Assembly (NCBI GenBank): GCA_035495615.1
Contig: DATJFP010000041.1
Coordinates: 857-64,856 of the forward strand
DNA: 64,000 nt
Direction of reading: 5' to 3'
DNA from: Verrucomicrobiia bacterium
Lineage (GTDB): Bacteria; Omnitrophota; Omnitrophia; Omnitrophales; Aquincolibacteriaceae
Below the pieces are notes generated by a model that searched no databases, was not told the origin of the DNA, and worked only from the letters and a program-made list of their open reading frames with translations. Position 1 is the first letter of the stretch. Every line of letters starts with the position of its first letter. Below are positions 5,392 through 62,367 of the stretch, piece by piece. A program made the translations under genes and the position numbers.

Positions 5392-6497
5392 TGGGGAAAC
5401 TCGCGCTGGGGCTCATGTCCGGCACCTCCGCAGACGGAGTTTCTGTCGCGGCCGGAAGCTTTGGCGGCGATTTCAAAATTTACGGGTACGAAACCTACGA
5501 TTTTCCTCCCGCTCTCGCGCTTCAAATCAAGCGAGCCCGTTCGCTTAAGATTGACGAGTTCTCGCGGCTGAACGTTTCCCTCGGAAAATTCTTCGGGCGG
5601 TGCGCGCTTTCTTTCATCACGAAAAACAAATTAAGCCGTTCACGGATCGCGGTCATCGGCTCTCACGGACAAACCCTCTACCATGGACCCGCGGACAATC
5701 CCCCTAACACCCTGCAGGCCGGCGAACCGAGCGAAATCGCGGAGATCACCGGCCTTCCCGTGGTCGCGGACTTCCGGCCCCGTGACATCGCGGCAGGCGG
5801 CGAGGGAGCCCCGCTCATTCCTTTCTTCGACCAGTTCTTTTTCGGCAAGGGGCGGCCACGCGCCTTGCAAAACATTGGCGGAATCGGAAACGTTTCGCTT
5901 GTCGGGAAACCGGTACGGCCGCTGGCCTTTGATACGGGGCCGGGCAATTGCCTGATGGATTTGGCAGCCGCAAGATTTTCGCGCGGGAAGAGTTCCTGCG
6001 ATCGAAACGGCATTCTCGCTTCACGCGGGAAAGTGGATTTCAAAGCCGTGAACGAAATGATGCGCCATCCTTTCTTCCGCCGGAAGCCTCCCAAATCCAC
6101 GGGACTGGAACTTTTCAATGAACGTTTCGTCCCCGCGCGCCTGTGGCGCCAGGAGAGAGAAGACTGCCTGGCGACGCTGACGTATTTCACGGCGCATGCG
6201 ATCCGCCAAAGCTATGAGGCATTTCTTCCCCGCGGCGTCGCGGAAGTCATCGTGAGCGGCGGCGGCGCTTTCAACAAGACGCTGATGAAATTTCTCCGAC
6301 AACTCCTCGCGCCCGTACCCGTCCGGTCCATCGCCGACTACGGCATGCACCCGCAGGCCAAAGAACCTCTGGCATTTGCTTTTTTTGCGTGGGAAGCGAT
6401 CCACGGCAGAATCAATCATTTTCCCGCAGGGACGGGAGCTCAAAAAACGCGCGTGCTGGGAAAAATCATTCCGGGAGGACGTGGTGCATCTCATTGA
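5391..6497 (+). CDS. anmK: anhydro-N-acetylmuramic acid kinase AnmK
   Basis: MGKLALGLMSGTSADGVS...IGSHGQTLYH are AnmK N-terminal and ATPase motifs. The ATG overlaps the murQ stop in TGATG, indicating translational coupling. Confidence 0.9.
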   Translation: MGKLALGLMSGTSADGVSVAAGSFGGDFKIYGYETYDFPPALALQIKRARSLKIDEFSRLNVSLGKFFGRCALSFITKNKLSRSRIAVIGSHGQTLYHGPADNPPNTLQAGEPSEIAEITGLPVVADFRPRDIAAGGEGAPLIPFFDQFFFGKGRPRALQNIGGIGNVSLVGKPVRPLAFDTGPGNCLMDLAAARFSRGKSSCDRNGILASRGKVDFKAVNEMMRHPFFRRKPPKSTGLELFNERFVPARLWRQEREDCLATLTYFTAHAIRQSYEAFLPRGVAEVIVSGGGAFNKTLMKFLRQLLAPVPVRSIADYGMHPQAKEPLAFAFFAWEAIHGRINHFPAGTGAQKTRVLGKIIPGGRGASH

Positions 6498-31195: not shown

Positions 31196-31753
31196 TCACG
31201 CCTTCGGCAAAATCTTTTCCACGCTTTGCAGGAACTCCGGCGACAGCGGGTCTACTTTCGAGTCGAACCGCGCCACCACGTTTCCCTTGGGATCCACGAG
31301 GAATTTGTTGAAGTTCCACGTGATGGGACCCTTGAAATCCGTGGCCGTCGTGAGATAGCGGTAAAGCGGGTGCATGGCGTCGCCTTTCACGGGAATCTTG
31401 GAAAAAAGATCGAACGTGACTTTGAAACGCAAGTCACAGAACTTCTTGATTTCCGCGTCCGTGCCCGGCTCCTGTCCCCCGAAATCGTTCGAAGGAAACG
31501 CGAGCACCTTCAGCCCCGCGTCCTTATATTTCTCATACAAGGCTTCCAGCGAAGCGTATTGCGGCGTGTACCCGCACTGGGAAGCGGTATTGACGATGAG
31601 GAGCGCCTTTCCATCATACTGGGCGAGGTCGACCTCCTTGCCGTCAATCGTTTTCGCTTTAAAGTCGTGCACGTTCTGCGGCGCGGCCCCCGCGTTCATG
31701 ACGCCCATGAAGAAAATCGCCCCCATCCAAAGTCCTTTGAGATCCAAGCTCAT
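31196..31753 (-). CDS. gpx: glutathione peroxidase (Cys-type), secreted or membrane-anchored
   Basis: VHDFKAKTIDGKEVDLAQYDGKALLIVNTASQCGYT...FPSNDFGGQEPG is the Gpx signature with a catalytic Cys. There is an N-terminal hydrophobic segment. Confidence 0.85.
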   Translation of the reverse strand: MSLDLKGLWMGAIFFMGVMNAGAAPQNVHDFKAKTIDGKEVDLAQYDGKALLIVNTASQCGYTPQYASLEALYEKYKDAGLKVLAFPSNDFGGQEPGTDAEIKKFCDLRFKVTFDLFSKIPVKGDAMHPLYRYLTTATDFKGPITWNFNKFLVDPKGNVVARFDSKVDPLSPEFLQSVEKILPKA

Positions 31754-40512: not shown

Positions 40513-40959
40513 ATGGAACTCGTCAGAAAAATAAATGGCTGGGATCCGTTCGACATCCTCGAAGATCTTCAAACGGACATGAACCGTGTTTTCAACCGGT
40601 CTCTCCAGAAGAGAGAGGGTTTGGAGAATGCCTTTCAGCCCCATCTCGAAGTGCGGGAAGATGCGGAAGCCTACATTTTAAGCGCGGATCTGCCCGGCTT
40701 GAAGAAAGAAGACTTTTCCATCACGGTGCAAGGAAACCGTCTGGTCTTGAAAGGAGAAAGGAAACAGGAAAAAGAATTGACGGAAAAAGGAATGCATTAC
40801 TCCGAGAGATCCTACGGCTCCTTCATGCGGAGCATGGAGTTTCCGGTCGAAGTGGCCGCCGACAAAGTCAAGGCGAGTTATAAAGACGGCGTCCTCGAGA
40901 TCAACTTGCCCAAGGCTGAGAATGCCAAGCCCAAGCAAGTGTCGGTTGAAGTGAAATAA
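40513..40959 (+). CDS. hsp20: Hsp20/alpha-crystallin family small heat-shock protein
   Basis: Alpha-crystallin domain (AYILSADLPGLKKEDFSITVQGNRLVLKGERK...GSFMRSMEFP...KASYKDGVLEINLPK). Confidence 0.9.
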   Translation: MELVRKINGWDPFDILEDLQTDMNRVFNRSLQKREGLENAFQPHLEVREDAEAYILSADLPGLKKEDFSITVQGNRLVLKGERKQEKELTEKGMHYSERSYGSFMRSMEFPVEVAADKVKASYKDGVLEINLPKAENAKPKQVSVEVK

Positions 40960-41012
40960 TGTTTCCGGAGCCCGGCGGATTACCGCCGGGCTCCGGTTCC
41001 TGGAGGAATACC

Positions 41013-41738
41013 ATGGAAACGCCTAATACAAATGCTGCTCCTGACAAAACAACGATGCCCGGTTGGGCTGTCGCCATTTTGGTATTGCTCGTGGCTTTGC
41101 TATGCCTTCAGTCCGTGCTTTTGGTGAAGACGATCAAAAACGACAGAGCCATCAGAAGGTTTGCGATTCAGAAACAAGTGTGGGATGCCAATCGAGCCGC
41201 GGCCGCGCTTCCGCAAAGAATGAACAGGCAAAGCTCCGCCGCTTATCAGCCTCTCCCAAACCGCTTTTACGGGCCGAGCCCTTACGGTTCTTACAGCGCT
41301 TCTCAGTTGGAAGACAGCATGAATCGGCTTTTCACAAATCTTCTGTCCAATTTTGCAGCGCCCTTATCGAGCATGATGGCAAGCCCGGCCGCGGCAGACT
41401 TTGATTTCATGCCTACCGCAGACATGGAAGAAAAAGACAATCTTTATATTGTGAAAGTGGACCTGCCCGGCTTGGACAAGGACCAGATCAACATCACGGT
41501 GAGAGACGGCTTGCTCACCATCGAAGGCGTTAGGAAATCTGAGTCCGAATCCAAAGACGACAAGACCGGATTTTATTCCCAGGAGCGCAGCTATGGATCG
41601 TTTTCCAGATCACTTCCGCTTCCCGGCCCTGTGGATGATGCCGGAATCAAGGCGGATTATGCCAATGGAGTTCTGACGATCCAGCTCCCCAAGAAGCCGG
41701 GAACCGAAAAAAATGCGACGAAGGTAAGCGTGCAGTGA
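41013..41738 (+). CDS. membrane-anchored Hsp20 family protein
   Basis: An N-terminal TM helix (GWAVAILVLLVALLCLQSVLLV) and a ~90-aa linker precede a canonical alpha-crystallin domain (LYIVKVDLPGLDKDQINITVRDGLLTIEG...GSFSRSLPLP...ADYANGVLTIQLPKK). RBS GGAGGA. Confidence 0.8.
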   Translation: METPNTNAAPDKTTMPGWAVAILVLLVALLCLQSVLLVKTIKNDRAIRRFAIQKQVWDANRAAAALPQRMNRQSSAAYQPLPNRFYGPSPYGSYSASQLEDSMNRLFTNLLSNFAAPLSSMMASPAAADFDFMPTADMEEKDNLYIVKVDLPGLDKDQINITVRDGLLTIEGVRKSESESKDDKTGFYSQERSYGSFSRSLPLPGPVDDAGIKADYANGVLTIQLPKKPGTEKNATKVSVQ

Positions 41739-41805: not shown

Positions 41806-43989
41806 TTACTTGATGAACAGCATCTCCTGGTACGTCGGAAGCGTCCAGAGATCATCCGCCACAAGCGTTTCCAGCTGGTCCGCGTATTTCCGGACCGTCC
41901 CCATCGCGGGAAGAACTTTGTAGCAGTAATACTCCGCTTCGGCTTCCAGGCTCTTGGCGCCGTGGTGTTCCTTGAGCTTCTCCAGAGCGCTGATGCTGCT
42001 CTGCAGGCCCTTCACGGCGGCCACAACCTCATCCAGCGTCGTGCTGTCGAACTTCACGCCGGCGGTTTTAGCAGCGGCCGCGGCCTGACAGAGTTCGGTC
42101 TGATAGCGGACAGCCGCAGGAAGGATCATGGTCTGGGCCATCTTCACGACGAGGTTGGATTCCAGGTTGATCGTCTTGCAGTACTGTTCCACGTAAATAT
42201 CGTGGCGGCTTTCGAGCTCGCGCTTCGAGAGCACCTTGTACTTGGCAAAAAGATCAGCGGCTTCCTTGGTCTTGGCGGCCTTGATCGCCTCGACCGTGGT
42301 CTTATCGTTCGGAAGACCGCGCTTGGCGGCTTCCTTGTGCCACGCTTCGGAATAGCCGTCGCCGTTGAAAACGACAGCGCCGTGTTCATCGATGATTTCC
42401 TTGAGCAGCTTCTGCACGGCGGCATTCAGCTTCTTGGAATCACCTTTGGTGGCCTTCTCGAGTTCCGTCGCAACGTAATCGAGGGAATCGGTGAGGGCCG
42501 TGAGAAGCATGACCAGCGGACCGGCCAGCGACATGCTGGAACCGACCGCGCGGAACTCAAACCTGTTGCCGGTGAAGGCAAACGGGCTGGTGCGGTTACG
42601 GTCGCCGGCATCCGAGGGAAGCGGCGGCAGCGTGTCGACGCCGACCACGAGCTTGTCTTTCTTCTTGGACGACTTGGCTCCGCCCTTCTTGATCTGATCG
42701 AACACGTCGGCAAGCTGCTCGCCGAGGAAGATCGAGATGATCGCCGGAGGAGCTTCGTTCGCGCCGAGGCGGTGGTCGTTATTGGCCGTGGCGACGGAAG
42801 CGCGCAACAGGTACGAATACTTGTGGACCGCGCGGATCGTGGCGGCGCAGAAAACGAGGAACTGCGCGTTTTCGTGCGGCGTCTCGCCCGGATCGAACAG
42901 GTTACCCTGCGTGCTGTTGCTGATCGAGAAATTCAGGTGCTTGCCCGAGCCGTTGATGCCCGCGAAAGGCTTCTCGTGCAGGAGGCAGGTCATGCCGTAC
43001 TTCTCGGCGACACGCTTCAGGGTATACATGAGGAGCTGCTGGTGGTCCGTGGCGATGTTCGCGCTCTCGTACAGAGGGGCGATTTCGTACTGGGCCGGAG
43101 CAACTTCGTTGTGGCGGGTCTTCACCGGGACGCCGAGCTTGAAGAGCTCACGCTCGCATTCGAGCATGAACGCAAGCACGCGTTCGGGAATCGCGCCGAA
43201 ATAGTGGTCTTCGAATTCCTGGCCGCGCGGCGGCTTGGCGCCGAAGAGCGAACGGCCGCAATTCAGAAGGTCCGGACGGGCGTAGTAGAAATTGCGGTCG
43301 ATCAGGAAGTATTCCTGCTCGGGACCCGCGTTCGCCACGACACGGGAAATCGCCGTGTGGCCGAACAGGCGCAGGATGCGCTGCGCGTGAACATTCATGG
43401 CCTGCTGGGCGCGGAGAAGCGGCGTCTTCTTGTCGAGCGCTTCGCCGGTCCAGGACACGAACGCCGTCGGAATGCAAAGCGTCGTCCCATTCGGATTTTC
43501 GAGGATGTACGCCGGGCTCGTCACGTCCCAAGCCGTATAACCGCGGGCTTCGAACGTCGCGCGGATGCCGCCGCTCGGAAAGCTGGAGGCATCGGGTTCC
43601 CCCTGGATAAGCTGCTTGCCCGTGAATTCCGCGATCGCCGAACCGTCACCCGTCGGCGTGAGGAAGCTGTCATGCTTCTCGGCCGTGGAGCCGGTCAAAG
43701 GATAGAAAACGTGGGCGTAATGCGTGGCGCCCTTTTCGATGGCCCAATCGCGCATGGCCGCAGCCACAACGTCCGCGATCGTGGAATCGATCTTCTCACC
43801 CTTCTCGATCGTCTTCATCAGAGAAATGTAGATGTCTTTAGGCAGCCGGGCCTTCATGACCGACGGACTAAAAACATTCGTTCCAAACAAACTCCCCGTC
43901 GAAGTCTCCGCGAAATTCAGAGGCTCCGAAATGGGCTCGTAACCGGTAACGGCCTTAACAGCCTGTAGACGTGCAGTACTTCCGCTCAT
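41806..43989 (-). CDS. glnN: glutamine synthetase type III (GlnN)
   Basis: 727 aa, GSIII size. The N-terminal MSGS...FGTNVFS...[10 protein letters not shown] and internal GS catalytic-domain motifs (e.g. [10 protein letters not shown]) are present. Confidence 0.9.
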
Positions 43990-44235: not shown

Positions 44236-44277
44236 GAGAAATAAATACAAAGGGCCAGAACGAATTCTGGCCCTTTG
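44236..44277 (-). terminator. Rho-independent terminator (minus strand)
   Basis: The minus-strand RNA reads CAAAGGGCCAGAA-UUCG-UUCUGGCCCUUUG followed by UAUUUAUUUCUC. Confidence 0.5.
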
Positions 44278-44438
44278 AAAAAAATGGAATGAGTCCATCT
44301 GCTACGCCTGCGAGATTAGCTCCCCTGGGTTCGGACTGCAGATTATAGCCCGTCTGCCTCGCGGCAAATTCACCCGTAACTGGTTCTCCCGCTCCCCGGA
44401 TGGGAATTAGGCGGCACTTCCGGATACGTTGCCCAGGC

Positions 44439-55538: not shown

Positions 55539-56204
55539 TTACGACGGTTTGACTTCCAGATCCGGAATGATTTCTTTTTCCCTGCGCGCGGCCGCCACCC
55601 ATTCTCGCACCGCGGGAAGGGAAAGCACGCTCTCGGCATAAGCCCGCGACACGGGATCGAGTTTCACGCCGTAAGTCCTGAAGCGCAGGCAAATGGGCGC
55701 GTACATGGCGTCCGCCGCGGTAAAGGCCCCGAACAGAAACGGGCCTTTTTTGCCGTAACGATTGCGGCATTCTTTCCAGATCGAGGTCACGCGGTTAACG
55801 TCCGCCTGGACCGGCGCGGGAAGCTTCTTCAAAGGGATAGATGCGCGGCAATTCATGGGCATGTGCCGGCGCAGGTTCACGAAGCCCGCGTGCATCTCGT
55901 TGGCGACGGCGCGCGCTTCCGCGCGGGACGCCGGGTCCGCCGGCCAAAGCCGGGCCTGCGGGAATTTTTCCGCGGCATACTCGCAGATAGCCAGCGATTC
56001 CCAGACCTTGACCTTGCCGTCGAAAAGGATGGGCACACGGCCCGCCTTGGAATAGCTGTCGATCTTTTTTCCCGAACCTTTTTGATGGATCGGGATCCTG
56101 ACCTCGCGGAATGGGGCTTTGGCCTGCTTCAACGCCAGCCAGGGGCGCAGCGACCACGACGAATAATTTTTGTTTCCGATCACAAGCGTCAGGTTGTTTT
56201 TCAT
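55539..56204 (-). CDS. gst: glutathione S-transferase (YfcF/GstB-like)
   Basis: A GST N-terminal thioredoxin-like fold (YSSWSLRPWLALK...GRVPIL.DG..VWESLAICEY) and a C-terminal helical domain. Confidence 0.85.
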   Translation of the reverse strand: MKNNLTLVIGNKNYSSWSLRPWLALKQAKAPFREVRIPIHQKGSGKKIDSYSKAGRVPILFDGKVKVWESLAICEYAAEKFPQARLWPADPASRAEARAVANEMHAGFVNLRRHMPMNCRASIPLKKLPAPVQADVNRVTSIWKECRNRYGKKGPFLFGAFTAADAMYAPICLRFRTYGVKLDPVSRAYAESVLSLPAVREWVAAARREKEIIPDLEVKPS

Positions 56205-56272
56205 GCCAAACCCTTTCTCAGGGAGTCAAGTATAGGCCCGGACAACGGGAGGGTCAAGAATTCCGGCGGGGG

Positions 56273-57070
56273 TCAGGCGCCGGCTTTGATGTTCTTCAGG
56301 CGTTCCAAAAAACGGTAAACTTCCGACGGCGATTTGAGGCGGAAGCGCGCCGCAGTCGGCTTTCCGGAGGTTTTCGAGACCCGCACCGCGAGCCCATTGC
56401 CGCGGATGGTCCTGAACGCGGCCTCATCCGTCGCGTCATCGCCGATGTAGATTGGGGCCACGCCGCTTCCGGCCTTGAAACGCTTCAGCAGCCATTTGAC
56501 GATGCAGGCTTTATCCCATGAAACCGCGGGCCGGATCTCCCAGACTTTCTTGCCTTCGGTCAGCACGATCCGGTGCCGGCGGCGCCACTGACGGAAAATT
56601 TCCGAGAACCGCTTTTTAATTTTGGCGACCTCCGCGGCCCGGACCTTGCGGAAATGCACGCTGAGCGTCAGCTTTTTATCTTCGATCCAGAGGCCGGGAA
56701 CGTTCCCGAGTTTTTTTTGCAGATCCCGGGCCAGGTCTTTCATGACCGGGCGCAGCGCGTCGGCGCCGGAATTCACATAGCGGACTTTCGGGCCTTCCAG
56801 CTCGAGGCCGTGATTGCCCGCGACCATAAGCCGGGGAATCCCGATTCTTTTTTTCACGTCGCCGAGCTCGCGGCCGCTGACCACGGCCACTTCGATGAAC
56901 GGCTCGAGCGAAGTCTCGCGGATCAGCCTGCGCTGCTCGCGGGAGATGCGGGCTTTTTTCGGATTCTTGACGATCGGCGTGAGCGTGCCGTCATAATCCA
57001 GGAAAAGGACGATCTTCTTGCCCCGGATGCGCGGCTTGATCTCCGCCCATTTTTCCAGCAAGTCCTGCAT
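56273..57070 (-). CDS. otsB: trehalose-6-phosphate phosphatase OtsB (HAD family)
   Basis: HAD motif I LFLDYDGTLTPIV, motif II AVVSGR, motif III/IV ...YIGDDATDE. The ATG overlaps the otsA stop in ATGA. Confidence 0.85.
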   Translation of the reverse strand: MQDLLEKWAEIKPRIRGKKIVLFLDYDGTLTPIVKNPKKARISREQRRLIRETSLEPFIEVAVVSGRELGDVKKRIGIPRLMVAGNHGLELEGPKVRYVNSGADALRPVMKDLARDLQKKLGNVPGLWIEDKKLTLSVHFRKVRAAEVAKIKKRFSEIFRQWRRRHRIVLTEGKKVWEIRPAVSWDKACIVKWLLKRFKAGSGVAPIYIGDDATDEAAFRTIRGNGLAVRVSKTSGKPTAARFRLKSPSEVYRFLERLKNIKAGA

Positions 57071-58551
57071 CACGCCTCCTGGAATTCGAATTTCAAGAGC
57101 TGGGACAGGACCTTTCCCGCCCAGCGGAAAATGTTGGAGTACGACACGGTCTCGCGCATCTTGCGCATCCTTTTTTCCTGCTCTTCGGCGCTCATCTGAA
57201 GCGCCTGGCAAAGCGTGTCCGCGAGGGACTCGGGATCGAAGGGATTCATGAGCAGCGCCTCGGTCAACTCGCGCGCCGCGCCGGTGAACTGCGAAAGCGC
57301 GAGCACGCCTTTCATGTCGGAGCGGCAGGCCACGAATTCTTTCGCGACCAGGTTCATGCCATCGTGCAGCGAGCCGACCAGGCAGACGTCCGCCATGCGG
57401 TAAAGCGCGAGGATATCCGAATACGGCATGTAGGCGCGCGTGAAGATGACCGGGGTCCAGGCGTCCTGGCCGTGCTTCCAGTTGATGCCTTCGACGAGCG
57501 CGTTGATCTCGTCGTTCAACTGCTTATAGCGCGGGATGTGAAGGCGGCTGATCTGCCCGAGCTGGAAAAAGACGACCTTCTGTTTGAACTCGGGATATTT
57601 TTCCAGGAAGCGGTCGTAGGCCCGCAGCTTTTCGGGAATGCCTTTGGTGTAATCGATGCGGTCCACGCCCACGATGAGTTTCATGCCCTGGAGGGCATGT
57701 TCGTCGCGGATTTCTTCCGCGCGCTTCAGGAAAGGCGCGGACTCGGCGCGGCTGGAGATCGTGTCGAAATCAACCGAGATCGGAAACGGCCGCACCAGCG
57801 TCTCGTGGTTCTGGTAGATGACCGAATTTTTTTCCCGGTCGATGCGGCTTTCCAGTTCGCGGTCCACCGTCGCCATGAAGTTGTCGCTGTGGTATTTGAC
57901 CTGGAAGCCCACCAGGTCGCAGGCGAGAAACCCTTCCAGGATTTCTTTTTTCTGCGGGCAGATGCTGAAGACTTCCGCGTTCGGCCACGGGATGTGCCAG
58001 AAAAGAGAGATGACCAGGTTCGGCTTTCCGGCTTCGCGCAGGTATTTGGCGGCCAGCGCCAGATGAAAATCCTGCAGCCAGACAAAGGCCTTCTGGTCCC
58101 CCACTTCTTCGAGGATGCGGTCGGCGAAAAGGCGGTTGACCTTCTGGTACGCGCGCCAGTCCTGTTCGAGAAAAATCGGGCGGTTGTAAGCGATGTGGCA
58201 AAGCGGCCACAGGCCCTGGTTTGAGTAACCGTAATAGTACTGGTCGCGCTCTTCTTTCGACAGGAAGATGCGCTGTAAAAAATAGGACGGATCTTCGGGC
58301 GGCATCTTGACCTTGCCGTCCGGCCCCACGGTGCGCAGGTCCTGCTCGCTCGTGCCCACGGCCACCCAGGTGCCGTTGACCGCCTGCATAACCGGGTCGA
58401 GAGCGGTGACAAGGCCTCCGGGCTCACGCTGGCACACGATCTTGCCGGCCTTGAGCGTATGATGATACGGCTGGCGGTTGGAGGCGATGACCAGCCGGTA
58501 GTCCGACATCCGTTCCTTGAACGTATTCTGAAGCGTTTCCTTAGTCCACAT
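57070..58551 (-). CDS. otsA: alpha,alpha-trehalose-phosphate synthase OtsA (GT20)
   Basis: 493 aa with GT20 blocks (LVIASNRQPY..., GYSNQGLWPLCH, FLHIPWP, LVGFQ, GVDRIDYTKGI, NPFD). Confidence 0.9.
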   Translation of the reverse strand: MWTKETLQNTFKERMSDYRLVIASNRQPYHHTLKAGKIVCQREPGGLVTALDPVMQAVNGTWVAVGTSEQDLRTVGPDGKVKMPPEDPSYFLQRIFLSKEERDQYYYGYSNQGLWPLCHIAYNRPIFLEQDWRAYQKVNRLFADRILEEVGDQKAFVWLQDFHLALAAKYLREAGKPNLVISLFWHIPWPNAEVFSICPQKKEILEGFLACDLVGFQVKYHSDNFMATVDRELESRIDREKNSVIYQNHETLVRPFPISVDFDTISSRAESAPFLKRAEEIRDEHALQGMKLIVGVDRIDYTKGIPEKLRAYDRFLEKYPEFKQKVVFFQLGQISRLHIPRYKQLNDEINALVEGINWKHGQDAWTPVIFTRAYMPYSDILALYRMADVCLVGSLHDGMNLVAKEFVACRSDMKGVLALSQFTGAARELTEALLMNPFDPESLADTLCQALQMSAEEQEKRMRKMRETVSYSNIFRWAGKVLSQLLKFEFQEA

Positions 58552-58594
58552 GTTGTCCTTTCGGCGAGGGAAAAAGAGAGGAGGCCGGAGAATT

Positions 58595-58731
58595 CCGGAT
58601 GGGAATAGAGCTCTTAATCCCTACGAGGTTAGCTGTCGGGCTCGGTTAAGAGTAACCGCTCCGCCTTTCGGCGGTTCGCCCCTGAACTTGGGTCCCCCGT
58701 TTTCCCGGCAAGCCGGAAAATTCGGTTTTTT
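58595..58731 (-). promoter_or_regulatory. candidate c-di-AMP riboswitch (ydaO/kimA class) in the otsA 5' leader
   Basis: The minus-strand RNA contains ACGGGGGACCCA and GAGCCCGACAGCUAACCUCGUAGGGAUUAAGAGC. These match two blocks I remember as highly conserved in ydaO aptamers (...GGGGGACCCA... and ...CCCGACAGCUAACUCCGGAGG...). It also has a GAAA-capped internal helix (CGCCGAAAGGCG). The element ends about 45 nt upstream of the otsA ATG. Confidence 0.55.
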
Positions 58732-58772
58732 GATTCTAGCTTAAGAGAAGCCGTTTTTCTTCGGGGTTTCCC

Positions 58773-59333
58773 TTAAAAATCGGACGCATCGTCGGGGATT
58801 CCCTTACCCGCGAGGATGGATTCGACGCCTTGCGGGACGTAACGGAAGCGGGCCTGAATGTGCTGGTAATCATTGTCGCGGGAAAGGCTGGAGAGCTGGG
58901 TCAGGATGGTTTGATAATTAGGATCGCCTTCGACTTTCTGCTTCAGCTTGTCGAGCGCCTTCTGCCGTTTTCGGAAGACCTTGCTCCCGGCGGCGATCGC
59001 GGCTTCGTCCTCGCCGGTCCACGGGAAATTCACGAAGGCGTTGAAACCCTGGTTGCGCACGATTCTTTCCGGCGCATGCGTCATCAGATAATAAAACCGT
59101 TCGCTTTTCTGGTCGGCCACGGCAAGCTGGTATTCCAGGCTGTCCTGGATCAGGTCCTTCAGGTCATGCAGATGCAGGCGCACGAGATGATGGAACGCCA
59201 CCTGGATTTTTTTCTGAGACTTGATGTAGTACTCCCAGGCCGGGTCCTGCGGAGCGGGCGCTTCCGCGGCGGCCGCGCGCGCGGCAAGAGAAAGAAAAAC
59301 ACCGAGCATCAAAAAAGAAATCTTCCGGGTCAT
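58773..59333 (-). CDS. secreted hypothetical protein (186 aa)
   Basis: Signal peptide MTRKISFLMLGVFLSLAARAAAA. No recognisable family. Confidence 0.5.
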   Translation of the reverse strand: MTRKISFLMLGVFLSLAARAAAAEAPAPQDPAWEYYIKSQKKIQVAFHHLVRLHLHDLKDLIQDSLEYQLAVADQKSERFYYLMTHAPERIVRNQGFNAFVNFPWTGEDEAAIAAGSKVFRKRQKALDKLKQKVEGDPNYQTILTQLSSLSRDNDYQHIQARFRYVPQGVESILAGKGIPDDASDF

Positions 59334-60720: not shown

Positions 60721-62367
60721 TCACGCTGCGGCGCCCGGAGGCACGAGGCGGAACCAGTAAAATCCATGCGGGGCAAAGGTCAGAAAATAAGGCAATTCAC
60801 CGATGGGCGGAAAGCTCACGTTGCCCATCAGCTCCACGGGAACGTGGTCTTTGTAGCGCGCCAGATTCAATTCGACCGGCTGCACGAACCTCGAGAGGTT
60901 GTTCACGATGAGAAGGATCTCGTCGCCGTAAGCGCGGACGTAGGCCAGGATCTTCGTGTTCTTCGAGTCCAGGAATTCCATGCCGCCGCGGCTAAACGCC
61001 TTGTGCTTTTTGCGGACGTTGATGAGCCTTTTCATCCAGCTCAGGTACGACGTCGAAGTCCTTTTCTGCGCCTCCATGTTCACGGCCTGGTAACCGTATA
61101 CCGGGTCCACGATGAGCGGCGCGTACAGCCGCGCCGCGTCGGCCGACGAAAACCCTCCGTTGCGTTCCCCGGACCACTGCATGGGCGTGCGCACGCCGTT
61201 GCGGTCGCCGAGGTAGATGTTGTCGCCCATGCCGATCTCGTCCCCGTAATAAACGACAGGCGTTCCCGGAAAGCTGAAGAGGATGCTGTTGAGGAGTTCC
61301 AGCTGCCTGCGCCCGTTGTTCATGAGCGGCGCCAGGCGCCGGCGGATGCCCAGATTGAGTTTCGCCTTGGGATCGGTCGCATATTCCTTGTACATGTAGT
61401 CGCGCTCTTCGTGCGTGACCATTTCCAGCGTGAGCTCGTCGTGATTGCGGAGGAAGATCGCCCACTGGCAGTTTTCGGGAATCTCCGGTGTCTGTTTGAT
61501 GATGTCCACGACCGGCGTCCGGTCCTCTTTGCGGATGGCCATGAAAAGGCGCGGCATCAGCGGGAAATGAAAGGCCATGTGGCATTCGTCGCCGCCGCCG
61601 AAATACGGGCGCACGTCGGCCGGCCACTGGTTGGCCTCGGCCAGCAGGACGCGCCCTGGGAAATCTTTGTCCATCTTCGCGCGAACCGCTTTCAGGTAAG
61701 CGTGGGTCTCCTGCAGGTTTTCGCAATTCGTGCCTTCCCTTTCGAAAAGGTAGGGCACGGCGTCCAGGCGGAACCCGTCGACGCCGGTTTTCATCCAGAA
61801 GGTCAGCACCTGGAACATGGCCCGCCGCACGGCCGCGTGATCGAAATTAAGATCGGGCTGATGGCTGAAAAAACGGTGCCAGTAATATTTCTTGGCTTTT
61901 TCGTCCCAGCTCCAATTGGACGACTCCGTGTCCGTGAAAATAATGCGCGCCTCTTTGAATTTTTTAGGGTCGTCCGTCCAGACGTAATAATCCCTTTCCG
62001 CGGCCTTGGCCGACGCGCGCGCCTTCTGGAACCACGCGTGCTGCTCGGAGGTATGGTTCATGACCAGTTCGATGAGGACGCGGATGCCGCGCTTGTGCGC
62101 CTCGCGCACGAATTCCCGGAAATCCTTGAAGGATCCGTATTCCGGAAGGATCTTGCGATAGTCGGAGATGTCGTAGCCGTCGTCCATGAGCGGCGACTGG
62201 TAGAAAGGAAGGAGCCAGAGGCAGTCGACGCCCAGCCCCTGGAGATAATCGAGCTTCTGAATCAGCCCCTGAAAATCGCCGATGCCGTCCCCGTTCGAAT
62301 CAAAAAACGAACGGACGTGAAGCTCGTAGATGATCGCGTCTTTGTACCACAAAGGGTCGTTTTCCAT
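60721..62367 (-). CDS. treS: trehalose synthase / maltose alpha-D-glucosyltransferase TreS (GH13)
   Basis: WYKDAIIYELHVRSFFDSNGDGIGDF...GVDCLWLLPFYQSP..DDGYDISDY...ELVMNHTS...GFRLDAV are GH13 catalytic blocks, with TreS-like size and N-terminus. Confidence 0.85.
   Translation of the reverse strand: MENDPLWYKDAIIYELHVRSFFDSNGDGIGDFQGLIQKLDYLQGLGVDCLWLLPFYQSPLMDDGYDISDYRKILPEYGSFKDFREFVREAHKRGIRVLIELVMNHTSEQHAWFQKARASAKAAERDYYVWTDDPKKFKEARIIFTDTESSNWSWDEKAKKYYWHRFFSHQPDLNFDHAAVRRAMFQVLTFWMKTGVDGFRLDAVPYLFEREGTNCENLQETHAYLKAVRAKMDKDFPGRVLLAEANQWPADVRPYFGGGDECHMAFHFPLMPRLFMAIRKEDRTPVVDIIKQTPEIPENCQWAIFLRNHDELTLEMVTHEERDYMYKEYATDPKAKLNLGIRRRLAPLMNNGRRQLELLNSILFSFPGTPVVYYGDEIGMGDNIYLGDRNGVRTPMQWSGERNGGFSSADAARLYAPLIVDPVYGYQAVNMEAQKRTSTSYLSWMKRLINVRKKHKAFSRGGMEFLDSKNTKILAYVRAYGDEILLIVNNLSRFVQPVELNLARYKDHVPVELMGNVSFPPIGELPYFLTFAPHGFYWFRLVPPGAAA

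Follow-up and report, generated by a model that had tools for sequence, protein, structure and literature searches.

Introduction

In Bacillus subtilis, c-di-AMP riboswitches exert negative control over expression of kimA (ydaO) and ktrAB, as summarised in a review. In Dehalobacter sp. CF, ablA, which encodes lysine-2,3-aminomutase, is associated with a tandem Na+-I/c-di-AMP riboswitch, the c-di-AMP riboswitch turns off this osmolyte-biosynthesis gene in vitro, and the partner-switching nucleotides are P1's right shoulder and the pseudoknot strand (White et al. 2022, PMC9337991). In Streptomyces, binding of c-di-AMP to the rpfA riboswitch leads to premature termination, and loss of c-di-AMP results in osmosensitivity. 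Genes near ydaO RNAs have been assigned in reviews to the function category "synthesis and transport of osmoprotectants", and c-di-AMP riboswitches were already predicted in Verrucomicrobia. Trehalose-6-phosphate synthase is an occasional partner gene of Li+-I (nhaA-I) riboswitches (White et al. 2022, PMC9646797). By full-text search, with the primary gene-association surveys (Nelson 2013, PMC3830699; Block 2010, PMC2916388) lying outside its coverage, no paper was found in which otsA, otsB or the synthesis of trehalose is named as a target of c-di-AMP riboswitches.

The subject of this report is the leader of an otsA-otsB operon on the minus strand of a 64-kb stretch of bacterial DNA, which was analysed as a whole and is referred to below as the window. 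The reading that we regard as likely is that of a c-di-AMP riboswitch in the otsA-otsB leader, with OFF polarity and an output other than intrinsic termination.

Computational procedures

The whole 64-kb window was scanned with cmscan against all 4227 Rfam families at the gathering threshold. For comparison, a distant sample of 160 otsA-homologue loci from many phyla (45-68% OtsA identity) and a close sample, comprising the nine other closest OtsA lineages (70-74% identity), were assembled, the latter being subjected to an Rfam scan. Screening was performed with nhmmer profiles, and base-pair counts were taken from cmscan alignments. MAFFT alignments shifted several helices out of register, so no custom covariance model was built from them. 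A strict regular-expression screen of 80 loci was discarded, as its single match (L013) was unconfirmed by Rfam and the expression also missed the second aptamer copy of the window.

Aptamer and its conserved parts

Two matches were obtained in the window, both to RF00379 (c-di-AMP riboswitch). The one in the otsA-otsB leader reached 67.1 bits on the minus strand (gathering score 38, E 2.2e-13) and covers the model from position 1 to its end at 134, which bears out the class that the initial annotation had proposed for this leader from sequence blocks. All blocks that it quoted were located on the minus strand between 58300 and 59100, and those taken as hallmarks of the family belong to its conserved core. 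The parts of the aptamer are as follows.

58604-58735, minus strand: full-length c-di-AMP (ydaO-class) riboswitch aptamer, from RF00379 and helix covariation with relatives
58689-58700, minus strand: core block ACGGGGGACCCA, conserved, comprising the junction and the 5' strand of the long-range helix, aligned to gCGgGGGAaCC
58661-58674, minus strand: GNRA-capped helix CCGCCGAAAGGCGG (CCGCC-GAAA-GGCGG), Rfam model positions 57-74, with covarying pairs
58628-58640, minus strand: conserved block CCCGACAGCUAAC, aligned to consensus CCCGuCAGCUAAC
58611-58621, minus strand: purine tail GGGAUUAAGAG, containing the 3' strands of P1 (GG) and of the pseudoknot (AAGAG)

Six aptamers were placed on the Rfam model via their cmscan alignments; in this model-fitted placement, which is biased towards structure, changes on both sides were found at pairs 30-114 (A-U / G-C), 35-109 (G-C / A-U) and 79-90, and all four pairs of the GNRA-capped helix (58-73, 59-72, 60-71 and 61-70) change on both sides among relatives. 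The window copy is identical to the consensus at 46 of the 56 upper-case (highly conserved) positions. Four of the ten differences make up two compensatory pairs, 53/96 (U-A to C-G) and 57/74 (to C-G), the former change being common to the otsA-type copies. P1 consists of only 2 bp in the window copy.

The AAGAG of the tail pairs with CUCUU of the loop at 58647-58652, forming the pseudoknot; the position of the pseudoknot strand was taken from White et al. 2022 (PMC9337991) and the Rfam consensus, and the exact partner loop is our own reading. In every full-length copy the last hairpin carries a loop with complementarity to the 3' tail, the sequences being CUCUU/AAGAG in the otsA type, and AUCUGC/GCAGAU and UCUGC/GCAGA in the glnN type. 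The nucleotides published as switching, in P1's right shoulder and in the pseudoknot strand, fit the tail GGGAUUAAGAG of the window copy, which is likely to be the switching segment. Judged from its sequence, this is an unremarkable RF00379 aptamer with c-di-AMP as predicted ligand, and it is held with high confidence that 58604-58735 (minus strand) is an aptamer of the c-di-AMP class acting in cis on otsAB.

The 9-mer GCCGAAAGG was found twice on the minus strand, at 58661-58672 in the GNRA-capped helix and at 58557-58566 directly before the otsA Shine-Dalgarno sequence. For a leader of this size we estimated the chance of such a repeat at about 0.15, and the repeat was judged compatible with chance; alternative pairing of the GGCGG strand could also result from it.

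Downstream operon

The aptamer starts 38 nt past the stop codon of an upstream ORF on the same strand (58773-59333) and is separated by 52 nt from the otsA start codon, likewise on the same strand. No promoter was identified for the otsA-otsB leader. The following features were assigned downstream of the aptamer.

58556-58561, minus strand: Shine-Dalgarno sequence AAAGGA (AAGGA at 58560-58556), 4 nt before the ATG at 58551, from reading of the sequence
57070-58551, minus strand: otsA-like GT20 trehalose-6-phosphate synthase, 493 aa, from PF00982, TIGR02400 and PDB relatives
56273-57070, minus strand: otsB trehalose-phosphatase (HAD-IIB), about 265 aa, from TIGR00685 (175 bits, cut-off 68)

The predicted OtsA N-terminus, MWTKE, agrees with homologues. 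PF00982 (Glyco_transf_20) matched residues 19-485 with 434 bits, and the 16 best PDB matches were all trehalose-6-phosphate synthases, aligned over the full length with E-values down to 2e-87. Among NCBIfam models the OtsA ones scored best; the score against TIGR02400 (OtsA, UDP-forming) was 462 bits, below the equivalog cut-off of 565, and that against GgpS (TIGR02398, glucosylglycerol-phosphate synthase) was lower, at 332 bits. Because of the TIGR02400 cut-off the protein is called OtsA-like, and its sugar donor is given only as a nucleotide-sugar. Its nearest named relatives come from metagenome-assembled genomes (MAGs) of Candidatus Omnitrophota. Together with the TIGR00685 match of OtsB, these assignments agree with the gene identities of the initial annotation. 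From glucose-6-phosphate and a nucleotide-sugar, OtsA and OtsB produce trehalose, a compatible solute.

The start of otsB is most likely the ATG at 57070, which follows AGGAGG and overlaps the otsA stop codon, and by this arrangement otsA-otsB is predicted to be translationally coupled. A gap of 68 nt separates otsB from a glutathione S-transferase (GST) gene and contains a sigma70-like site, TTGACC-17-TATACT (56229-56257, minus strand). This promoter-like site of its own suggests that GST is transcribed apart from the riboswitch-gated operon, so the gated unit probably comprises otsA-otsB only.

Genomic surroundings and second aptamer

The operon had been described as part of an osmotic and oxidative stress island. 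Several of the stress genes were indeed recovered:

60721-62367, minus strand: TreS-like alpha-amylase
55539-56204, minus strand: GST
40513-41738, plus strand: two HSP20 genes
31196-31753, minus strand: glutathione peroxidase (Gpx)

They are spread over about 30 kb among housekeeping genes and do not form a tight island; genes for a pseudouridine synthase, an LpxL-like acyltransferase, a sulfate-type ABC transporter, a porin, an Rrf2 regulator, EF-P and TPR proteins are interspersed. By motif search, no gene for a diadenylate cyclase (DAC domain) was detected in the 64-kb window. The lone RHRAA motif match in the window was rejected as a DAC, as its ORF encodes a TPR protein.

The other RF00379 match lies near glnN, and with it the organism uses this riboswitch class more than once.

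44290-44423, minus strand: second c-di-AMP aptamer, RF00379, 56.9 bits
about 44239-44276, minus strand: terminator after the second aptamer, 12-bp stem AAAGGGCCAGAA/UUCUGGCCCUUU, folded hairpin of -21.9 kcal/mol
41806-43989, minus strand: glnN, type III glutamine synthetase, about 300 nt downstream of the second aptamer

The order methyltransferase, aptamer (RF00379, 59.2 bits), about 375 nt, glnN and hsp20 is kept at locus L172 (GlnN 87% identical), and the glnN-linked aptamer arrangement is absent at L174 (GlnN 79% identical). A promoter-like TTGCAT...TATAAT lies between the terminator of the second copy and glnN, which makes the link of this aptamer to glnN less direct.

Expression platform

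Between the aptamer and the otsA Shine-Dalgarno sequence, two further elements are present.

58585-58598, minus strand: short hairpin CCGGAAUUCUCCGG (CCGGA-AUUC-UCCGG), at the position of the terminator in relatives
58568-58584, minus strand: C/U-rich tract CCUCCUCUCUUUUUCCC, pairing partner of the purine tail whenever this is free of the aptamer, from minimum free energy (MFE) folds

A hairpin followed by U5 had been noted here, and both components exist: CCGGAAUUCUCCGG forms a hairpin of 5 bp (-6.8 kcal/mol), and CCUCCUCUCUUUUU, quoted as following it, was located at 58584-58571 (minus strand). They do not amount to a canonical intrinsic terminator, with 5 bp, the U5 run 9 nt away, and a consensus terminator scan that returned nothing on this strand. 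The canonical terminator appears to have decayed in the window copy, the homologous position holding a weak hairpin, and the output is therefore probably masking of the Shine-Dalgarno region or Rho entry, not intrinsic termination.

The duplex of the tail GGGAUUAAGAG (58611-58621) with 58568-58578 was calculated at -14.7 kcal/mol, and in the MFE structure of the leader (-15.9 kcal/mol) the small hairpin is enclosed by pairing between GGGAUUAAGAG and CUCUUUUUCCC. This composite stem was rejected as an intrinsic terminator, since its U residues lie within the stem and CCCUCG follows. Clean sequestration of the Shine-Dalgarno sequence by the pyrimidine tract was likewise rejected, no convincing helix being found. 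When the tail was blocked in the thermodynamic model, mimicking the ligand-bound state, the mean unpaired probability of the Shine-Dalgarno sequence fell from 0.67 to 0.41, a modest modelled drop in accessibility in the OFF direction. The freed pyrimidine tract is C-rich and G-poor and would suit Rho loading.

Distribution of the otsA linkage

RF00379 was found in the same position, directly before otsA-otsB, in four of the nine other closest sampled lineages, and two others carry the Li+/Na+ sensor nhaA-I (RF03057) instead. Coordinates refer to the respective loci.

L161: RF00379 upstream of otsA, 74.3 bits
L163: RF00379 upstream of otsA, 71.7 bits
L169: RF00379 upstream of otsA, 75.8 bits
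L162, 2328-2432: RF00379 upstream of otsA, 47.2 bits
L164-166 (one lineage), 2402-2457 (L166: 57-112): nhaA-I upstream of otsA, 42 bits
L170, 122-172: nhaA-I heading a GGDEF-CLC-otsA-otsB operon, 46.1 bits

The Rfam scan detected no element upstream of otsA in L167, L168 and L171. Three of the four RF00379 loci (L162, L163 and L169) have an alpha-amylase/TreS-like gene after otsB. In the distant sample, RF00379 was found near otsA at none of the 160 loci (Rfam on the first 20, nhmmer profiles on all). Since the link recurs in four of the nine closest lineages and in none of the distant loci, the c-di-AMP/otsAB association is a recurring trait of one sub-clade and not an accident of one genome. 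In L161, L162, L163 and L169, a canonical intrinsic terminator follows within 7-12 nt of the aptamer; the stem energies range from -8.5 to -20.9 kcal/mol, and each stem runs directly into a U-rich tract.

The aptamer of L162 lacks both hairpins of its second half (41 model positions) as well as the pseudoknot tail. A GCAA-capped closure of the GGG/CCC helix stands in place of the missing parts, P5/P6 giving way to the GCAA loop, and a canonical terminator still follows. This RF00379 match may be an aptamer in decay or else a minimal variant; if an aptamer of the half-deleted L162 type still binds its ligand, it would represent a c-di-AMP riboswitch in minimal, single-site form.

In further sister lineages, nhaA-I elements were detected before otsA, the RF03057 scores in sister lineages being 39-47 bits.

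L019, 3141-3192: nhaA-I directly before an N-terminally extended OtsA ORF
L014, 3129-3188: nhaA-I at a position equivalent to that in L019
L020, 3114-3164: nhaA-I at a position equivalent to that in L019

The occurrence of nhaA-I in place of the c-di-AMP aptamer suggests that one sensor has replaced another on orthologous operons. The extended ORF of L019 (3236-5476, an Omnitrophota MAG) encodes 746 aa, with the OtsA domain in the C-terminal two thirds and an additional N-terminal region of about 250 aa. On a Candidatus Aminicenantes contig (L009), a c-di-GMP-I riboswitch (RF01051, 80.9 bits) lies at 5790-5874, downstream of the otsA homologue at a distance of about 3 kb.

Proposed switching and alternative readings

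When c-di-AMP is bound, the purine tail GGGAUUAAGAG would be locked in P1 and the pseudoknot, binding being expected to depend on ACGGGGGA and the AAGAG tail; at low c-di-AMP the tail would pair with the downstream C/U-rich tract CUCUUUUUCCC. Ligand binding would lower otsAB expression, either by masking of the ribosome-binding region or by exposure of a C-rich Rho entry site in the freed pyrimidine tract, and trehalose synthesis would rise when c-di-AMP falls, as under hyperosmotic or K+-limited conditions. OFF polarity is favoured, with some reserve, because all characterised members and the canonical terminators of the relatives point this way. The choice of a specific output step, translational or Rho-dependent, is tentative at best.

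The same aptamer could instead work as an ON switch, in which c-di-AMP removes a structure containing the U tract and thereby raises otsAB expression. The U-rich tract takes part in just one stable structure, in which the purine tail is the 5' arm, and the MFE structure of tail and CUCUUUUUCCC (-15.9 kcal/mol) forms only with the tail out of the pseudoknot; moreover, the osmosensitivity of Streptomyces lacking c-di-AMP indicates that the physiological polarity is not universal. A composite stem with its U residues inside and CCCUCG after it, and thus no trailing U tract, should canonically not terminate, however, the independent terminators of the relatives are typical of OFF switches, and the modelled Shine-Dalgarno accessibility is higher, not lower, with the tail free, so that the ON switch is considered unlikely. 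A similarly low probability is given to a broader proposal, by which the aptamer of this lineage has come to act through an output other than a terminator (ribosome access or Rho loading, governed by release of the C/U tract) or even as an ON switch, the otsAB leader being a hot spot of sensor exchange; the sensors exchanged would be c-di-AMP, nhaA-I and the pared-down L162 aptamer without one half.

Loss or weakening of regulation behind an intact aptamer would make the leader a relic, with otsAB constitutive or otherwise regulated. The 2-bp P1 is in line with this, as is the shrinkage of the terminator of four relatives to a 5-bp hairpin away from the U run; yet the intact pseudoknot and the degree of conservation at the consensus positions would be unexpected without selection, and the switching tail has a strong alternative pairing (-14.7 kcal/mol), so a relic leader is judged improbable, somewhat more so than an ON switch. 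Least credible of all is a fold variant with a different ligand: 10 of the 56 conserved positions are off consensus, but most of these deviations form compensatory pairs or fall within P1 and loops, the core blocks equal the consensus, and the score is well above the gathering threshold. The preferred reading thus remains a c-di-AMP riboswitch that would lower otsAB expression upon ligand binding.

Significance and comparison with known systems

Neither a new RNA class nor a new mechanism is revealed by this locus. A less-described regulon link had been suggested for it; otsAB was indeed not found named as a target in the full-text search, and with osmoprotectant synthesis an established category and ablA as a precedent, the link is only mildly new. 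It would be a modest addition at most, the aptamer class being known and the category already described. In an uncultured, little-studied lineage related to PVC/Omnitrophota, the c-di-AMP regulon would be widened from K+ and osmolyte uptake to the de novo synthesis of trehalose. The presence of either a c-di-AMP or a Li+/Na+ riboswitch on orthologous otsAB operons supports an osmotic role of both sensors, and offers a natural comparison of which signal bacteria choose to gate compatible-solute production.

Like the described members of the class, the window riboswitch occupies the 5' leader of a same-strand target gene, which lies within the functional range of the class (osmotic, K+, cell wall). 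It shares with the B. subtilis kimA (ydaO) and ktrAB riboswitches the aptamer family RF00379 and the osmotic/K+ theme; those riboswitches gate K+ transporters in Firmicutes, whereas here a biosynthetic operon is preceded by an aptamer with a 2-bp P1 and no canonical terminator. The Li+-I (nhaA-I, RF03057) riboswitches have the same target gene, trehalose-6-phosphate synthase, but differ in the sensor, nhaA-I being a cation-responsive genetic ON switch, and the window RNA is not nhaA-I. With Dehalobacter ablA, an OFF switch, the osmolyte-biosynthesis target and the switching nucleotides are alike; ablA has two terminators in a tandem arrangement of two inputs and serves N-epsilon-acetyl-beta-lysine, in contrast to the single aptamer, trehalose and the lack of a canonical terminator in the window. 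The ydaO-like riboswitch of Streptomyces rpfA is of the same aptamer class and likewise found outside Firmicutes, but controls cell-wall hydrolases, whereas the window copy is linked to compatible-solute synthesis.
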